DNA of 64,000 nucleotides from Legionella sp. GTDB lineage: Bacteria > Pseudomonadota > Gammaproteobacteria > Legionellales > Legionellaceae. A program made the position numbers and the translations under genes. Shown piece by piece: positions 23,859-32,963 of this stretch. The notes under the pieces are model-generated. The model ran no database searches. It had not been told where the DNA came from and was given only the letters and a program-made list of their open reading frames with translations. Each line of letters opens with the position of its first letter. Position 1 is the first letter of the stretch. The stretch lies in NCBI RefSeq assembly GCF_031291095.1, contig NZ_JARLJR010000008.1. The stretch is one strand, 5' to 3'.

Positions 23859-24047
23859 GCTGGTTGATAAAATGGGCGGATTTTTCAGCCAACAAATGCA
23901 TCTGTGCGATACTGCAATCCTTAATGCGGATCTTTTGAACACATTGATTTACCAGCTTTTTTCCCAACTTCATCTTGTCTAATTCCCTATTTTTTGTTTA
24001 TGATGAGGGATGATGATAATACCTTCTAGAAAAGGAATTTGGATGTG

Positions 24048-25046
24048 ATGAAAAAGCAAGCAGTAATTCTGTCATTATTTTTATTAGGCAATGGGCAAAT
24101 GGTATGTGCGGATGCTTTGTCCAGAACACGAACTGAAATGGCGGAGCAAACTAATGAAACCACTAGTAATGTAACAGGTTTTCTGAAAAAGATAACTCCG
24201 GAATTCCTTTATGGATATACTGATTTTCACTTTAAGTCATCTTCTTTAGGGAATCAGAATCGTTACAATGGGCATTCAAACCTTTATTCAGCCGGAGCGG
24301 ATCATCTTTCCTTTGGCCCTAGCGTAATGGCGGGTGTTTACTATTTTCGAGTGGATACTTCGTTAAACTCTGCTTTTTTGTTAGCACCAAGTCCGCTGAC
24401 TACGACCTCACAAAATATAAAAAATGATACGATTTTTGGTCACGTATTAAAGATTTTTACGCCGCAAATCTATTTGGATTTAGCCGCAGGTTATGGATAC
24501 AACAAAATCAATAGTTACTTGACTGTTGCTCCAGGCTCTATTGATGAGTTGCATGCCTATGCTCGTAATGGTAGTGATAACTGGTTTGTTAGTGCTAATG
24601 GGATTTATAGAAAAAGCTGGCAAAAGTTTTTGCTGAGAGCGAATTTCGGCGTTTTATATAGCCAAATTAACACAGGAGCTTATGATTATAAATTCCCAAC
24701 GCTAGACACCATGGTACCTATTCAAGCCTTAACGAATAAAGCAACCTTGTTAATGGAAAATGCGGAGCTTGGTTATTTTATTAACCCTAAATTAATGCCT
24801 TTTATTAATGGCGGTTTATTTCAAGTAGCTCAGTTTTCAAATAGTCGTCCTATTGTGAATTCTGCTATTGTGGTAAATGGTACTCTGCCTCAATTAAACA
24901 TGAATAAAGACGGTTTTCGTTTGGGCGGGGGAGTTTCCTATACGTATAAGAATGTTACGATGCGTGTTGAGGAAAAATATTACAATGCGAGCAGCACATT
25001 CCATAGTTTCCAAACCTTGGCCGCTATAGAATACCAGTTTTCTTAG
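24048..25046 (+). CDS. Outer-membrane beta-barrel protein (autotransporter beta-domain-like, no passenger)
   Basis: Signal peptide MKKQAVIL...VCA; alternating amphipathic strands (YLDLAAGYGYN, FRLGGGVSYTY); C-terminal AAIEYQFS beta-signal-like; AAGGA RBS. Confidence 0.7.
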   Translation: MKKQAVILSLFLLGNGQMVCADALSRTRTEMAEQTNETTSNVTGFLKKITPEFLYGYTDFHFKSSSLGNQNRYNGHSNLYSAGADHLSFGPSVMAGVYYFRVDTSLNSAFLLAPSPLTTTSQNIKNDTIFGHVLKIFTPQIYLDLAAGYGYNKINSYLTVAPGSIDELHAYARNGSDNWFVSANGIYRKSWQKFLLRANFGVLYSQINTGAYDYKFPTLDTMVPIQALTNKATLLMENAELGYFINPKLMPFINGGLFQVAQFSNSRPIVNSAIVVNGTLPQLNMNKDGFRLGGGVSYTYKNVTMRVEEKYYNASSTFHSFQTLAAIEYQFS

Positions 25047-25210
25047 GCATCTTTAGTCAGCTGAAGTAATACGATAATCGCTCACCTGCTGCGGCTAGTC
25101 CGTGGCTCGTAGGGGGTTGGGTAAAACATGAGAGGATTTCTCAGCACGTAGCCCCTTTATTTTCATTTGGAGTGAACGGCTACATTCAATAGAAAGGACG
25201 AATTTTTGCA

Positions 25211-27451
25211 ATGAATGCTCCGCAGTTTTTGCCCAAAATACTGAAATCCAAATTGACTCAATTTTCTCTTGGTCTTTTCTGTACTGCATTCATTTTTCTT
25301 GCTGATGTAATTCATCTTCCTTTAGTAAGTTTCCTTATTGACCAGTTAGATGATCGAATTTATGATCAAATTGTTCAATTAAATCGTCGTCCACATTTGC
25401 CTAATCCCAAAGTGGTTATCATTGATATCGATGATCGCTCAGTACAAAAGGAAGGAAGATGGCCCTGGCCACGTAATAAGCTGGCCGAATTACTTAACAA
25501 ATTAAAGGGGGCAGGGGTCGTAACTATTGGTACGGATATGGTTATGGCTGAACCTGAGGTAAATTATGCCACGGGCTTAAAAGAAGAGCTATTGCCATTA
25601 ATTTCGCAACTCCCGCCCAACCAACAGCAACTTCCCGCCTTATTAGAGGCGATTGCACCACAAGTTGATAATGATCGTATTCTTGCTCATTCTTTATTGG
25701 AGCATAATGTTGTTTTGGGGTTTTTGTTTCATAATGATCAAGTGGTTAAAAAGGGCGTTTTGCCCTCACCGCTAACCACTCAAAACAATGCCCTTATTTA
25801 TCGAGGCGATATGCCTCTTTATCAGTTTTCTGGTTATAACGGTTGTTTGCCTTTGTTTCTTAATGCGGCGACTCAAGCGGGCTCGGTAACGAATCTTCCT
25901 GACTCAGATGGCTCAGTGCGCCATGGACTGATGATTGCTAGCTATGATAACAAACTCTACGCTACGCTATCGTTAGCAATTGCAATGAATTATTTGATGG
26001 TTGATCACGTCACCTTGACTACTACGGAGGGTGAGTTAAGTGGAATCCAAATGGGGGCTGTGTTTATACCAACCAACTCTAGAGGCCAAATTCTTATTCC
26101 TTTCTGGGGGCTTCCTGGGGCATTGCCTTATTATTCTGCAACTGAGATCATGCAAGGCAGTTTTAATCCTGATGAGCTACAAGGCGCAATTGCAGTGATT
26201 GGCTCCACCATGATTTTGCTTGCTGATTTACACCAGTCTCCCGTAGCTCAATCATTTCCTGGGGTGGAAATGGTGGGCAACATGGTGCAAGGCATAGTGG
26301 GACAACAGCTTGTTACCCAATATAATTGGCATACCTCAAGTGCTCGCTTGTACCTATTATTATTAGGATTCTTTTTTTCCTGCATCTTTGCTTTTGTCGG
26401 GGTTACAGGCATGTTAGTGCTGACCTTTATCAGTATATTGGCAACCTTGGCAATTTCCGTTTATCTTTTTGTCGCTAAAAGTTTATATGTACCCTTAGCC
26501 TTCATCCTGGTGCTGATTATTTTACAGACTGTGGCAAACTATGGTTATTTATTTATTATGGAGCGGCGGCAAAAGAGAAAAATCAATCAGCTGTTTGGTC
26601 AATATGTTCCTGAGCAATATGTTAAAGAATTAATTGATTCTCCAGAGCAATACAGCATGGATGGCCAAGAGCGTAATATGACCGTGCAGTTTAGTGATAT
26701 ACGCAATTTTACTACCATCAGTGAGTCGTTGGGGGCCTCTGATGTTAAGCGGTTATTAAATACATTTTTTACCCCGATTACAGAAATAATTTTCAGCTTT
26801 CGCGGTACCATCGACAAATATGTTGGCGATATGATTGTTGCTTTTTGGGGAGCACCCATGGTCGATGAGGACCACGCTTATCATGCGATCTTGGCTTCGT
26901 TAACCATGATAAATAGCCTGCCTGAAATCAATGAAAAAATGGTAGCAACGGGACTTCCTGCCGTAAATATTGGAGTGGGCTTGGCAACAGGCTTAATGAA
27001 CGTAGGTGACATGGGATCTGAATTTCGTCGTGCATATACGGTTCTTGGCGATACGGTAAACCTTGCTTCGCGATTACAAGATTTAACCAAATTTTATCAT
27101 GTGAATATTTTAGTGAGCGATGGGACTCGTGTTGCTGATGAGCGATTTGTTTGGCGACCCGTAGATAAAATAACGGTTAAGGGGCGTAAAACGGGATTGG
27201 TTATTTATCAACCAGTTGGTTTGCGTACAGAGGTTGCTGATGCGGTTGTGGCTGAGTTGGAGGAATACCAGGCAGCCTTAGATGATTATTATGCATGTAA
27301 CTGGTCGTCTGCAGAAAAGAAATTTGATATTCTGAAAAGCAAATCGCCGGAAATTTATTTGTATCAAATGTATCTTGAGCGCATTAAAGTATTCCAGGTG
27401 GAACCACCTGCGGAAGATTGGAGTGGTATTTATGTTCATCTACATAAATAA
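25211..27451 (+). CDS. CHASE2-domain class III adenylate cyclase
   Basis: TM-CHASE2 (VVIIDIDD, GRWPWPR, D.DG.VR)-3TM-cyclase; FSDIRNFT and DKYVGD (metal Asps, adenine-selecting Lys), AYTVLGDTVNLASR (Thr, Asn, Arg), VKGR. Confidence 0.93.
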   Translation: MNAPQFLPKILKSKLTQFSLGLFCTAFIFLADVIHLPLVSFLIDQLDDRIYDQIVQLNRRPHLPNPKVVIIDIDDRSVQKEGRWPWPRNKLAELLNKLKGAGVVTIGTDMVMAEPEVNYATGLKEELLPLISQLPPNQQQLPALLEAIAPQVDNDRILAHSLLEHNVVLGFLFHNDQVVKKGVLPSPLTTQNNALIYRGDMPLYQFSGYNGCLPLFLNAATQAGSVTNLPDSDGSVRHGLMIASYDNKLYATLSLAIAMNYLMVDHVTLTTTEGELSGIQMGAVFIPTNSRGQILIPFWGLPGALPYYSATEIMQGSFNPDELQGAIAVIGSTMILLADLHQSPVAQSFPGVEMVGNMVQGIVGQQLVTQYNWHTSSARLYLLLLGFFFSCIFAFVGVTGMLVLTFISILATLAISVYLFVAKSLYVPLAFILVLIILQTVANYGYLFIMERRQKRKINQLFGQYVPEQYVKELIDSPEQYSMDGQERNMTVQFSDIRNFTTISESLGASDVKRLLNTFFTPITEIIFSFRGTIDKYVGDMIVAFWGAPMVDEDHAYHAILASLTMINSLPEINEKMVATGLPAVNIGVGLATGLMNVGDMGSEFRRAYTVLGDTVNLASRLQDLTKFYHVNILVSDGTRVADERFVWRPVDKITVKGRKTGLVIYQPVGLRTEVADAVVAELEEYQAALDDYYACNWSSAEKKFDILKSKSPEIYLYQMYLERIKVFQVEPPAEDWSGIYVHLHK

Positions 27452-27482
27452 TTAATGTTTTGTTTATTGTACAGGGAAAAAT

Positions 27483-28283
27483 ATGAAGAGAATAATTTTA
27501 ATCGGACTTTTATCCATGACGGCCCAGGTTTTCGCTGAGTCTGCGGCTAAGGTATTGTTTACACAGAATAAGGTTACTGCCTCTCATGGCGGTAGCTCGC
27601 GAACTCTTTCTCGTGGTTCAGCTTTGGAACCAGGTGACGAAATCGCTACAGCTGCGGGCGCTGCAGTACACCTTCAATATTCAAATGGGACTTTAGTGAA
27701 TATTGGTTCAAACTCATCATATAAGATTCTCGCGTATTCTCCTAAGCAAGCTGGCGTGCAAATTAATGCAGAGTTAGCTCATGGAAAATTAGAAATTCAA
27801 AATGGTGGGAAAATTAAAGAAACATTAAAAACGCCTATTGTCTCTTTAGCTATTCTTGGAACCCATATTCGTGTTGATGCGACCCGTTCAGCGAAGGCGA
27901 ATGGTAATCCTAAAAACAAGCAATGTGCTGGAGCGCGTGCCACCGAAGATACTTACGTCCAGGTTATCGAGGGATTAGTTTCTGCTCGCGATAAGCTTTT
28001 AAGGCCTGGAAAAAGTGTACGTGTTACCTGTGATCGTATTGTTGATGCACCATTCCCACCCGATGGTATTGTCAATTCGCCATTAAACTCACCAGGAAAA
28101 ATTGAAACTATGGCTGGAGGGGCTGCTGCGGATACTAACGTTTCAGATGAGGGGGCTTTAATTGCGACCTATGTTGCCACGAACCAGGCTCCAGGTACTA
28201 TTACAACCGGCAGCATTGATTCTATCCAGGCGGTTACTGCTGTGGCAGATATTTCCTTAGCTTGTAGCACTGGTTTACCTTAG
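27483..28283 (+). CDS. Periplasmic FecR-domain protein
   Basis: Signal peptide (..QVFA-E); GDEIAT...NGTLVNIGSNS and TP...AILGT match the FecR-domain pattern. Confidence 0.8.
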   Translation: MKRIILIGLLSMTAQVFAESAAKVLFTQNKVTASHGGSSRTLSRGSALEPGDEIATAAGAAVHLQYSNGTLVNIGSNSSYKILAYSPKQAGVQINAELAHGKLEIQNGGKIKETLKTPIVSLAILGTHIRVDATRSAKANGNPKNKQCAGARATEDTYVQVIEGLVSARDKLLRPGKSVRVTCDRIVDAPFPPDGIVNSPLNSPGKIETMAGGAAADTNVSDEGALIATYVATNQAPGTITTGSIDSIQAVTAVADISLACSTGLP

Positions 28284-28318
28284 CAGGTCTGGTTGCTTGC
28301 AACCAGCGAATTGTATAA

Positions 28319-28351
28319 CCCGTATTACGACTTTCGTCGAATACGGGCTAA
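28319..28351 (-). repeat. GTAGCCC-family REP-like palindrome
   Basis: Minus TTAGCCCGTATTCGACGAAAGTCGTAATACGGG; stem CCCGTATT/AATACGGG. Confidence 0.75.
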
Positions 28352-28379
28352 AAACTCTTCTAGTATGTTAAATCAATGT

Positions 28380-28410
28380 CGTCAATTGCGAACGAAGTGA
28401 AGCAACCCGG
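28380..28410 (+). repeat. Degenerate CGTC-tagged REP-like element
   Basis: CGTCAATTGCGAACGAAGTGAAGCAACCCGG resembles the CGTCATTGCGAGCGAAGCGAAGCAATCC type. Confidence 0.5.
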
Positions 28411-28497
28411 TACGGAGTTATAACGAGGTATCGTTCTGGGTTCTTTTATCAAGGCTTGCATGATGATGCTTACAAAGGTAACGCATACGGCCTACAC

Positions 28498-29271
28498 TTA
28501 TTCCCGTAAACCAACTCCTTTTTTTAATAAATACAGATTCAATGCAGTCAATAAAACAAGCATGAGACAAATGATACTCATTGCTAAGCCCATACCGACT
28601 TCACTTTGACCAATCATTGCCTGTCTAAGCGCATTAACCATATATAAAATTGGATTTAAAAGAGATACTTTTTGCCAAAAATTCGGCAACATCGCTGTAC
28701 TGTAAAAGACACCGCCTAAATAGGTGAGCGGGGTGAGCACAAAGGTAGGGATGATCATAATGTCATCAAAATTACGGGCAACCATCGCATTCGTAAAGCC
28801 AGCTAAGGAAAATATTGCGGAAACCAGTAAGACCACCAATAAGGTCATGGGCAAATGACTTAATTGAATCGTTAGAAAAAAGCTAGCAATAAGATAAACT
28901 AAAATTGCAACAATTAAACCGCGTACCATGCCGCCAAAAACATATCCCAGCAACAAAAAGCTATCATGCATAGGGCTGATTAGCATTTCCTCAATACTTT
29001 TTTGGAAGCGCACGCTATACAGCGAAGACGATACGTTGCCATAGGAGTTAACAATTACTGACATCATTATTAAGCCTGGAGCAATAAACATGGGATAACT
29101 AACGCCCTGAATTTCACCAATACGAGGCCCAATTAGGCTACCAAAAATCAAAAAATAAAGAGTCGTAGTGATAACCGGAGGTAAAAATACCTGGCTGGCA
29201 ATACGAAACATCCGTACAACCTCACGTCGTACAAGCGTGTATAAAGAAACAAGTTGTTTTTTAATGGCCAT
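28498..29271 (-). CDS. yadH: ABC-2 type transporter permease (YadH-like)
   Basis: FIAPGLIMMSVI, KSIEEMLISP, PLTYLGGVFYS, LNPILYMVNALR. Confidence 0.9.
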   Translation of the reverse strand: MAIKKQLVSLYTLVRREVVRMFRIASQVFLPPVITTTLYFLIFGSLIGPRIGEIQGVSYPMFIAPGLIMMSVIVNSYGNVSSSLYSVRFQKSIEEMLISPMHDSFLLLGYVFGGMVRGLIVAILVYLIASFFLTIQLSHLPMTLLVVLLVSAIFSLAGFTNAMVARNFDDIMIIPTFVLTPLTYLGGVFYSTAMLPNFWQKVSLLNPILYMVNALRQAMIGQSEVGMGLAMSIICLMLVLLTALNLYLLKKGVGLRE

Positions 29272-32008: not shown

Positions 32009-32096
32009 TATGCACCTTAAGGAATATATATATTTATTTTTTTTAAGTATAGGATAATAATCTTAAAAAGTTTGTTGTTTGCATGCAAGGATTGTT

Positions 32097-32963
32097 ATGC
32101 TTTCTTCTAGTTCTGAATATCTTATGGCTCTGCGTGAACGAGATTTTCTTCTCTTTTTGGAGTGGCCTAATTTTGTTGCCAAAAAATATGGGAGACCTGA
32201 TGAACCCTTAGGTGGTGATGCACTTATGGATTGCTTGGTTTTTGAATGGCTAAGTTATGGTTTTCGTGATGAAGATATCGAGCACATGGCTATTCTCTAT
32301 GCTATTTCTGAATTAACTACGCTGTTGCATTCTGGTGTATTAATGTATCAATTAATGACAACCACCTCCGCGTTATTTTCATGCATGGCTTTTCACACGC
32401 TTCATTTAGATGACACGAATTTTCCTGTGGGAATGAATGAGCGCGAGATTTTTAAATTTATGGATGAAAAAACGAGAATTGAGGGAGGAAGTCCTACTCT
32501 TTTTAACGAGAGCACTAGCTTAGTTCGCCATGATTTTTTAAAACGTACTTCCTTGATTAATGAGTCGCAAGTATTTATTTCGTGTAAAAAAATATACGAT
32601 ATTAACTTTGTACTGCATGAAGTGAGTGAATATAAGGATAAGCTTTATCGAGAAGAAGATAAGGAAAAGGGCAATAGTTTGTGTTATACCCGTTTGGGAA
32701 TTGTGGAGGCCTTTCTGTCTTATTTAAAGGGACAGACTGAGCTAGGGGATAAAGCATTATCCGAAATAAATAACTATGTGACACTGCTTCGTAAAGCCCA
32801 GCCGAAGAAGTGGGAGGAAAAGTATTTAGATAAGATTGCTCCGCCTTCATTCTTCATGCAGGTATCAAAGACCCTGTTAACGTATTGTGCGTTCTTTTTT
32901 TCTAAAATAATTCCTGGACCTTTGGGGGAACATAAGGCTGAAGCGACGCCTCAGGTGGGCTAA
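32097..32963 (+). CDS. Probable Dot/Icm effector, Lpg0393-like (VPS9-like Rab GEF family)
   Basis: ~288 aa helical protein between the oxygenase/YgjP genes and ogt, the recalled position and size of lpg0393; ATG 32097 with AAGGA RBS. Call rests on synteny. Confidence 0.55.
   Translation: MLSSSSEYLMALRERDFLLFLEWPNFVAKKYGRPDEPLGGDALMDCLVFEWLSYGFRDEDIEHMAILYAISELTTLLHSGVLMYQLMTTTSALFSCMAFHTLHLDDTNFPVGMNEREIFKFMDEKTRIEGGSPTLFNESTSLVRHDFLKRTSLINESQVFISCKKIYDINFVLHEVSEYKDKLYREEDKEKGNSLCYTRLGIVEAFLSYLKGQTELGDKALSEINNYVTLLRKAQPKKWEEKYLDKIAPPSFFMQVSKTLLTYCAFFFSKIIPGPLGEHKAEATPQVG

Follow-up and report, generated by a model that had tools for sequence, protein, structure and literature searches.

Known systems and the Legionella locus

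The system closest to the one described here is known from Sinorhizobium meliloti, where an external proteinaceous signal activates the cyclase and the outer-membrane protein NsrA is needed, and where genetics has shown that the CHASE2 cyclases CyaK and CyaD1/CyaD2 depend on NsrA for their signalling (PMC7529298, PMC13001267). The barrel of NsrA was placed in residues 600-1200, the C-terminal half of the protein (PMC7529298). Clustering of CHASE2 and FecR genes in general is already known in the literature (PMC9239204, PMC5192318, PMC5498481): CHASE2-FecR linkage was reported for clusters in Campylobacterota (PMC9239204), a LysM-FecR protein is paired with a CHASE2 histidine kinase in Burkholderia (PMC5192318), and a separate FecR-domain gene, smc02177, adjoins cyaD1 in the S. 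meliloti locus clr-cyaD1-smc02177-smc02178 (PMC5498481). The subject of the present analysis is a set of three neighbouring genes from Legionella sp. (assembly GCF_031291095.1, contig NZ_JARLJR010000008.1), which encode an outer-membrane barrel, a CHASE2 receptor cyclase and an exported FecR-domain protein. They lie within a 64,000-nucleotide stretch of DNA, referred to below in its full length as the window. To our knowledge, the mechanism by which CHASE2 receptors are activated has not been worked out, NsrA of S. meliloti being the sole genetic handle so far, and we are aware of almost no exploration of cyclic AMP (cAMP) signalling in Legionella. No description of a CHASE2 module or of these genes in Legionella was found in the literature searched, as had been supposed in an earlier interpretation of the window made from its letters alone (the sequence-only reading).

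The same interpretation had named the CHASE2 cyclases of Sinorhizobium and their barrel receptor NsrA as a precedent. The precedent is real (PMC7529298, PMC13001267), and it is closer than was realised at that time, as NsrA itself carries a FecR domain. The architecture of NsrA was derived from the pSymB sequence. A 1219-aa open reading frame (ORF) directly upstream of cyaK encodes a FecR domain in its N-terminal part (E 2e-15) and, behind it, tetratricopeptide (TPR) repeats, and the FecR-domain protein of the window could be aligned to this FecR domain (E 8e-4). NsrA is thus a fusion of two parts that Legionella encodes separately, and the Legionella set, in turn, looks like a split NsrA. We favour, at a probability of roughly 0.55, the reading that the trio forms one envelope-spanning module, in which the barrel and the FecR-domain protein would be a split NsrA-like input device, and the FecR head would act on CHASE2 and control cAMP. 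The linkage of the three genes was observed directly; we infer that the FecR-domain protein touches both the barrel and CHASE2, as well as the direction of signal flow.

Conservation of the three genes in Legionellaceae

The sample comprised 121 Legionellaceae genomes, and a cyclase was taken as orthologous at 46% identity or more. Orthologous cyclases were present in 13 of these genomes, and the barrel gene and the FecR gene lay in the same locus in all 13, which is clustering far beyond chance. The co-conservation on which the sequence-only reading had staked its proposal was complete in this sample. The source organism stands near L. rowbothamii, L. lytica and L. saoudiensis, whose cyclases share 92-94% identity with that of the window. 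Firstly, the genes occurred in three different orders: barrel-cyclase-FecR in the window, FecR-barrel-cyclase in, for example, locus L039, and FecR divergent from barrel-cyclase in locus L040. Secondly, the chromosomal context differed: the unit is flanked by genes for an M48 peptidase and for an ABC-2 transporter in the window, but by gatCAB on one side and rnpB/fis on the other in L. pneumophila, and a metagenomic Legionella contig carried the trio in a third genomic context. Since the unit survives both reshuffling of its genes and relocation, we regard these observations as good evidence for a shared function. Over 17 loci, the three proteins lose sequence identity in parallel, with Spearman coefficients of 0.89-0.96.

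The source genome contains a second pair of FecR and barrel genes, which has no cyclase (locus L051:6377-10629 on contig G000:C17; FecR gene L051:7386-8204, barrel gene L051:6377-7336). The barrel of this pair is 37% identical to that of the window, and the pair is divergent from a gene whose 777-aa product combines collagen-like repeats with a beta-domain of the inverse-autotransporter type. A further Legionella genome and a metagenomic sequence show the arrangement too (L056 and L057). Because such a cyclase-free pair exists and is conserved in other Legionella, the FecR-domain protein and the barrel seem to be the core unit, with the cyclase as one possible output. A genome search found a single CHASE2 gene in the source genome, together with five cyclic nucleotide monophosphate (cNMP)-binding proteins, all encoded on other contigs.

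Features of the three proteins

Class III adenylate cyclases have two metal-binding aspartates, a lysine and a threonine that specify the substrate (an aspartate replaces the threonine in class IIIa), and a transition-state asparagine and arginine. Alignment to CyaB (3r5g) and Cya2 (2w01/6fht) placed all of them in the cyclase of the window, as D496, K536, D540, T610, N617 and R621, so the full set of catalytic and ATP-selecting residues that had been claimed from the letters is indeed there. Since Lys536 takes the place of the glutamate found at this position in the guanylate cyclase Cya2, and since Thr610 by sequence marks the cyclase as class IIIb, adenylate cyclase activity is expected of the CHASE2 protein of the window. 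The hydropathy profile showed an N-terminal hydrophobic segment at aa 15-46, with one transmembrane segment at about aa 15-40, and, at aa 376-450, a second hydrophobic region, which we read as approximately three transmembrane segments. As these two regions bracket the CHASE2 domain, the domain was placed in the periplasm. The order of parts is that of a CHASE2 receptor, i.e., CHASE2 between an N-terminal transmembrane segment and a cluster of about three such segments, followed by a cytoplasmic output domain.

The barrel protein matched the autotransporter beta-domain PF03797 in Pfam (E 1.2e-10, aa 64-306). It is composed of a signal peptide (about aa 1-21), a variable linker reaching to about aa 45 and the barrel itself (aa 50-329). 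The AlphaFold2 (AF2) model, built with 46 family members, has 12 strands at a predicted local distance difference test score (pLDDT) of 84, with aa 14-44 disordered, and no pore helix was predicted in it. Only about 25 variable residues separate the signal peptide from the first strand and no passenger is present, in agreement with the sequence-only reading. The best fold matches in the PDB were the translocator domains of NalP, EstA, BrkA, AIDA-I and EspP, with a TM-score by target length of 0.74 against NalP (1uyn), and the channel-type barrels FadL and TodX were also matched at lower ranks. The family alignment contains several invariant polar or charged residues, namely H132, D144, E237, E240, R306 and E308. 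Two word-index searches returned 82 and 84 homologous proteins, respectively, and every source name given in these matches was Legionella, Fluoribacter or Legionellales. An exhaustive profile search over 1.84 billion representatives gave 112 proteins of the barrel family, in a listing that carries no organism names; all were 412 aa or shorter, and there was no long ordinary autotransporter among them. Judged by these sequences, the barrel family is a small one that never carries a passenger, and a split module with this barrel appears to be confined to Legionella and its relatives. The family bears on uses of autotransporter barrels other than secretion.

The FecR-domain protein consists of a signal peptide (aa 1-18), a beta-rich head (aa 21-195), a low-complexity linker and a C-terminal peptide ending in ADISLAC (Cys261). 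The signal peptide has no lipobox and is the sole hydrophobic segment of the protein. The AF2 model was confident for the head, and aa 210-266 were disordered, with pLDDT below 50. Fold matches of the head were the periplasmic domains of anti-sigma factors, 4m0n and PupR (6ovk_R), at a probability of 1.0. The first part of the head also matched the retention module of MpIBP (5ix9; TM-score 0.76 by target length, root mean square deviation 1.0), and the NCBIfam profile retention_LapA matched aa 32-85 (E 1.4e-8). A sequence search of the PDB with the family profile gave marginal matches only, to EcpB (E 0.009) and MpIBP (E 0.045). A LapG-type TAAG cleavage site in the head was considered and discarded, being present in the protein of the window but unconserved across the family. 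In the family alignment a conserved head is followed by a hypervariable low-complexity linker rich in Ser, Gly, Thr and Asp, and by a conserved C-terminal peptide. The pair G126-T127 is invariant and C261 is kept in at least 90% of the members; the cysteine usually stands near the end of the peptide, and the terminal Cys motif is missing in the orthologues L039 and L058. In FoxR-type anti-sigma factors a Gly-Thr pair of the FecR domain is the self-cleavage site, and the Pfam match, rather than a direct alignment, suggests that G126-T127 may be its equivalent.

The sequence-only reading had described this protein as soluble and periplasmic. The FecR domain, the signal peptide and the lack of a lipobox agree with that description; the disordered linker, the conserved C-terminal peptide and a detection in culture supernatant, discussed below, make a purely periplasmic adaptor doubtful, and the protein may not be one. 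In the clade of the window the head carries a specific insertion of about 20 residues (within aa 139-184), which contains Cys148. In the FecR sequences of this clade Cys148 is paired with Cys183, which suggests a clade-specific disulfide that would leave Cys261 of the tail unpaired. The possibility that the two proteins are a Slam / type 11 secretion pair was rejected: there was no match to PF04575 or to TPR, and the barrel is of the 12-strand autotransporter-like kind, not the 14-strand DUF560 kind. The role of a Slam cargo was likewise rejected for the FecR-domain protein, the tail of which is about 60 disordered residues and not a TbpB-like 8-strand barrel.

The L. pneumophila orthologues and their expression

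In L. pneumophila the set corresponds to lpg1738 (barrel), lpg1739 (cyclase) and lpg1741 (FecR-domain protein), as assigned from the supplementary tables of PMC3048289. In older annotation they stand as hypothetical proteins, apart from lpg1739, which is mis-named 'gidA'. The gene lpg1740 (L050:9475-9939) sits between the cyclase and FecR genes and encodes a secreted, Cys-containing protein of 154 aa, which is absent from the window and gave no Pfam match. The lpg numbering is consistent, because lpg1742, a 148-aa ORF (L050:10772-11218) antisense to the RNase P RNA (L050:10854-11226; RF00010, 341 bits), was confirmed downstream of the FecR gene; lpg1742 itself is probably not a gene. All four genes from lpg1738 to lpg1741 are transcribed both in broth and in Acanthamoeba (PMC3048289, Table S1). 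From exponential to post-exponential broth culture lpg1738 and lpg1739 went down approximately 3-fold, and lpg1740 and lpg1741 approximately 1.5-fold (PMC3048289).

Proposed mechanism and alternative explanations

In the envelope-spanning module that we favour, the barrel would be located in the outer membrane and the exported FecR-domain protein would associate with it, the two together doing the job of the fused NsrA with its FecR, TPR and barrel parts. On the periplasmic side of the inner membrane, the FecR head would act on the CHASE2 domain of the cyclase, the intact class IIIb catalytic domain would then make cAMP in the cytoplasm, and this cAMP would be read by one of the five cNMP-binding proteins of the genome. 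The sequence-only reading, which we regard as partly supported, had proposed the same order, from a surface signal through barrel and FecR-domain protein to CHASE2 and cAMP. Legionella would offer a minimal split version of such a system, with three small genes and one CHASE2 gene per genome in genetically tractable laboratory strains, and the split arrangement allows either of the two parts, FecR or barrel, to be deleted or modified while the other is left as it is.

Several observations weigh against this module. Fifteen further Legionellaceae genomes have distant CHASE2 cyclases (31-38% identity), and neither partner was found within 1.5 kb of these by tblastn in the 15 genomes, nor adjacent to them in the five loci with flanks inspected in detail. 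As the distant cyclases stand without barrel and FecR partners, CHASE2 cyclases can work without them. The cyclase-free pair described above, for its part, implies a role of FecR and barrel that needs no CHASE2. The barrel has no sequence similarity to NsrA (BLASTP E 3.2), so that the analogy with NsrA rests on the FecR domain and the gene context. A single transcript is not assured in L. pneumophila, because the expression ratios of lpg1738 and lpg1739 differ from those of lpg1740 and lpg1741 and because the gene for the 154-aa protein intervenes. Finally, a FecR-domain protein has been reported from the culture supernatant of L. pneumophila, where it was 8.3 times as abundant as in that of a type II secretion mutant (PMC12239567). 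It is probably the lpg1741 orthologue, since only one gene with a FecR domain is present in G118, a genome resembling that of L. pneumophila, and a strictly periplasmic adaptor fits poorly with its presence in the supernatant.

The distant CHASE2 cyclases have neighbours of their own. In one subfamily (L041, L043 and L044) the cyclase gene adjoins that of an Apyc1-like phosphodiesterase of the metallo-beta-lactamase (MBL) fold. A further neighbour in these loci is either a phospholipase of the patatin/NTE-like kind that binds cNMP or an MscS-type channel, likewise cNMP-binding, that is accompanied by a FecR protein. The loci resemble compact cAMP circuits, the output of which would be a lipase in the one case and a channel in the other.

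The alternative that survives best, although we consider it a good deal less probable than the module, is that the FecR-domain protein and the barrel form a pair that serves primarily for surface display or anchoring. The head would be a periplasmic stopper, the tail with its C-terminal peptide would go into or through the narrow 12-strand barrel, and the cyclase would monitor assembly, pulling or cleavage. The resemblance of the head to the LapA/MpIBP retention module (retention_LapA, 5ix9) is in line with such a tether, as is the build of the tail (aa 210-266), a disordered and hypervariable linker with a conserved terminal peptide that usually has a cysteine nearby. The lack of a pore helix of its own in the barrel model, the existence of the cyclase-free pair and the finding of the FecR-domain protein outside L. 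pneumophila cells (PMC12239567) point in the same direction. However, no route is known by which the C-terminus of a Sec-exported protein is threaded through a separate autotransporter barrel, and the terminal Cys motif is absent in L039 and L058. Leakage or vesicles could also explain the detection in the supernatant, since the periplasmic proteins SodC and cytochrome c4 were contained in the same supernatant proteome (PMC12239567).

A variant, which we hold to be somewhat less probable again, is a 'split autotransporter', in which the conserved C-terminal peptide of the FecR-domain protein would occupy the barrel lumen in trans and the head would serve as periplasmic stopper. Surface events that move or cleave the tail would be passed to the FecR head, to CHASE2 and to cAMP. 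Were this so, contact at the outer membrane, for instance with a host cell, would be turned into cAMP, and the cyclase-free paralogous pair would be the same tether with another output.

It is unlikely that the barrel is a small solute channel, through which a specific molecule would enter the periplasm to be bound by the FecR-domain protein, by CHASE2 or by both, with no conformational signal coming from the barrel. The 12-strand barrel without a predicted plug, its many invariant polar and charged residues and the appearance of FadL and TodX among the lower-ranked fold matches would suit a channel, but the best matches in both sequence and structure were autotransporter translocators. In addition, the fusion of FecR and barrel in NsrA suggests contact rather than simple permeation, and the FecR and barrel pair that lacks a sensor is hard to explain by ligand entry alone. 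That the three genes are mere neighbours with no shared function is very improbable, for even if the gap between barrel and cyclase genes (164 nt) and the unlike ratios of lpg1738/39 and lpg1740/41 would allow separate transcription, the trio stays together in 13 of 13 genomes despite three different gene orders and a chromosomal setting that varies at least threefold.

Organization of the locus and regulatory sites

All three ORFs were found on the plus strand in an ORF check, at the coordinates and in the common orientation given in the sequence-only reading (Table 1). The trio is flanked by genes for LemA, an M48 peptidase, a 183-aa membrane protein, an ABC-2 transporter, a 2-oxoglutarate (2OG) oxygenase and YgjP. 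Neighbour annotation and a domain scan revealed no adjacent gene for a sigma factor, a TonB-dependent receptor or a CRP-type protein, which bears out a further statement of that reading. Both hexamers of the promoter-like site upstream of the barrel gene are retained in the relatives L002-L006, and the Shine-Dalgarno sequence of this gene stands at the same position in nearly all orthologous barrel-gene leaders. The spacer between the barrel and cyclase genes was not significantly structured, folding no better than its shuffles (z -0.64), and its length among relatives ranges from 43 to 199 nt. The two hairpins behind the FecR gene have no T-run and were hence missed by the terminator scan; they are likely to mark the end of the unit and may be a bidirectional terminator or a repetitive extragenic palindromic (REP)-like element. 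Rfam was scanned with the locus and with the window in full, and neither contained a known RNA element.

Table 1. Features of the barrel-cyclase-FecR locus, in positions of the window.
Feature	Position	Strand	Basis or remark
Promoter-like site TTGTCT-18-TATGAT, 5' of the barrel gene (predicted)	23975..24004	+	Consensus scan, 9/12 matches
AAGGA Shine-Dalgarno of the barrel gene (second of the two proposed CsrA motifs)	24032..24036	+	11 nt before ATG 24048
Passenger-less autotransporter-type 12-strand outer-membrane barrel, 332 aa	24048..25046	+	PF03797 and AF2 model
Spacer between barrel and cyclase genes, 164 nt	25047..25210	+	No terminator-like site in scan
CHASE2 receptor adenylate cyclase (expected), class IIIb by sequence, 746 aa	25211..27451	+	Pfam CHASE2 E 6e-50, Guanylate_cyc E 3e-19
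Periplasmic CHASE2 domain PF05226, aa 37-386	25319..26368	+	Pfam and hydropathy
Cytoplasmic class III catalytic domain, aa 488-661	26672..27193	+	Alignments to 3r5g (CyaB) and 2w01/6fht (Cya2)
Exported FecR-domain protein, 266 aa	27483..28283	+	PF04773, E 2.4e-9
Two GC-rich hairpins just 3' of the FecR stop, in the convergent gap before the ABC-2 permease gene	28288..28347	.	Fold of 28280-28500, z -2.3

From two ANGGA motifs in the leader of the barrel gene it had been suggested earlier that the locus is under the control of CsrA. Both motifs are present, at 24006 and 24032, within 45 nt of the start codon, and only 1 of the 36 long ORFs of the window has at least two such motifs in its 60-nt leader. 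The background of ANGGA is 0.0033 per nt, and 10 of the 36 ORFs have the motif at the ribosome-binding position. We nevertheless find it unlikely that this leader is a CsrA target and that the module belongs to the CsrA life-cycle switch of Legionella. The motif at 24032 is simply the Shine-Dalgarno sequence and has been kept in that capacity. The one at 24006 is lost in L003 and L008, the proteins of which are 91-93% identical to those of the window, in L005 and L006, and in all more distant orthologues. It falls between the conserved -10-like hexamer, which ends at 24004, and the expected transcript start, and is thus probably not part of the transcript. The roughly 3-fold lower post-exponential expression of lpg1738 and lpg1739 is also unlike that of a CsrA-repressed transmissive gene. 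Since one motif is the Shine-Dalgarno sequence, the other is unconserved and probably upstream of the transcript, and expression falls, the claim of CsrA control is a weak one.

Two further observations were made outside the trio. At 32079-32963 of the window, some 4 kb downstream, a protein with an Lpg0393 VPS9-like domain and a helical bundle domain is encoded, and it is likely to be an orthologue of a Dot/Icm effector. On contig G000:C144 of the source genome a SMODS nucleotidyltransferase adjoins an S_4TM effector (L060:941-2860), which looks like a defence pair of the CBASS type, and a 686-aa protein with FecR and DUF6600 domains (L060:6755-8815) is encoded nearby.

Comparison with known systems

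With the LapA/MpIBP adhesins the Legionella FecR-domain protein shares a match, by retention-module profile and by structure, in the N-terminal part of its head (aa 32-85). Unlike them it does not belong to the RTX adhesins, its gene has no type I secretion genes as neighbours, and its TAAG-like sequence is unconserved. The barrel belongs to the same Pfam family (PF03797) and has the same 12-strand fold as the type Va autotransporters NalP, EstA, BrkA, EspP and AIDA-I, from which it differs by the lack of a passenger domain and of a predicted pore-spanning helix. The FecR/PupR anti-sigma factors have the fold of their periplasmic domain in common with the Legionella protein, and the Gly-Thr pair is invariant in the Legionella family. 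In contrast to these anti-sigma factors, the Legionella protein has no transmembrane helix, no cytoplasmic anti-sigma domain and no C-terminal domain of the FecR_C/STN type, and neither a partner sigma factor nor a TonB-dependent transducer is encoded near the trio.

The clr-cyaD1 locus of S. meliloti and the clusters in Campylobacterota have, as Legionella does, a CHASE2 adenylate cyclase beside a separate FecR-domain protein. Those loci additionally encode either a phosphodiesterase together with a TPR protein or else the regulator Clr, and none of these clusters is reported with an autotransporter-type barrel. The likeness to NsrA-CyaK lies in an outer-membrane barrel and a FecR domain that in both cases are encoded beside a CHASE2 class III adenylate cyclase. 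In Legionella, however, FecR domain and barrel come from two genes, no TPR region is present in any of the three proteins, and no Clr-like regulator is adjacent to the trio. The Legionella barrel, moreover, is of a non-homologous 12-strand autotransporter type, whereas that of NsrA is large. What is new here is a set of the NsrA-CyaK kind that is split into two proteins and has a barrel of a different family, and that is found in L. pneumophila, where it is as yet unstudied.

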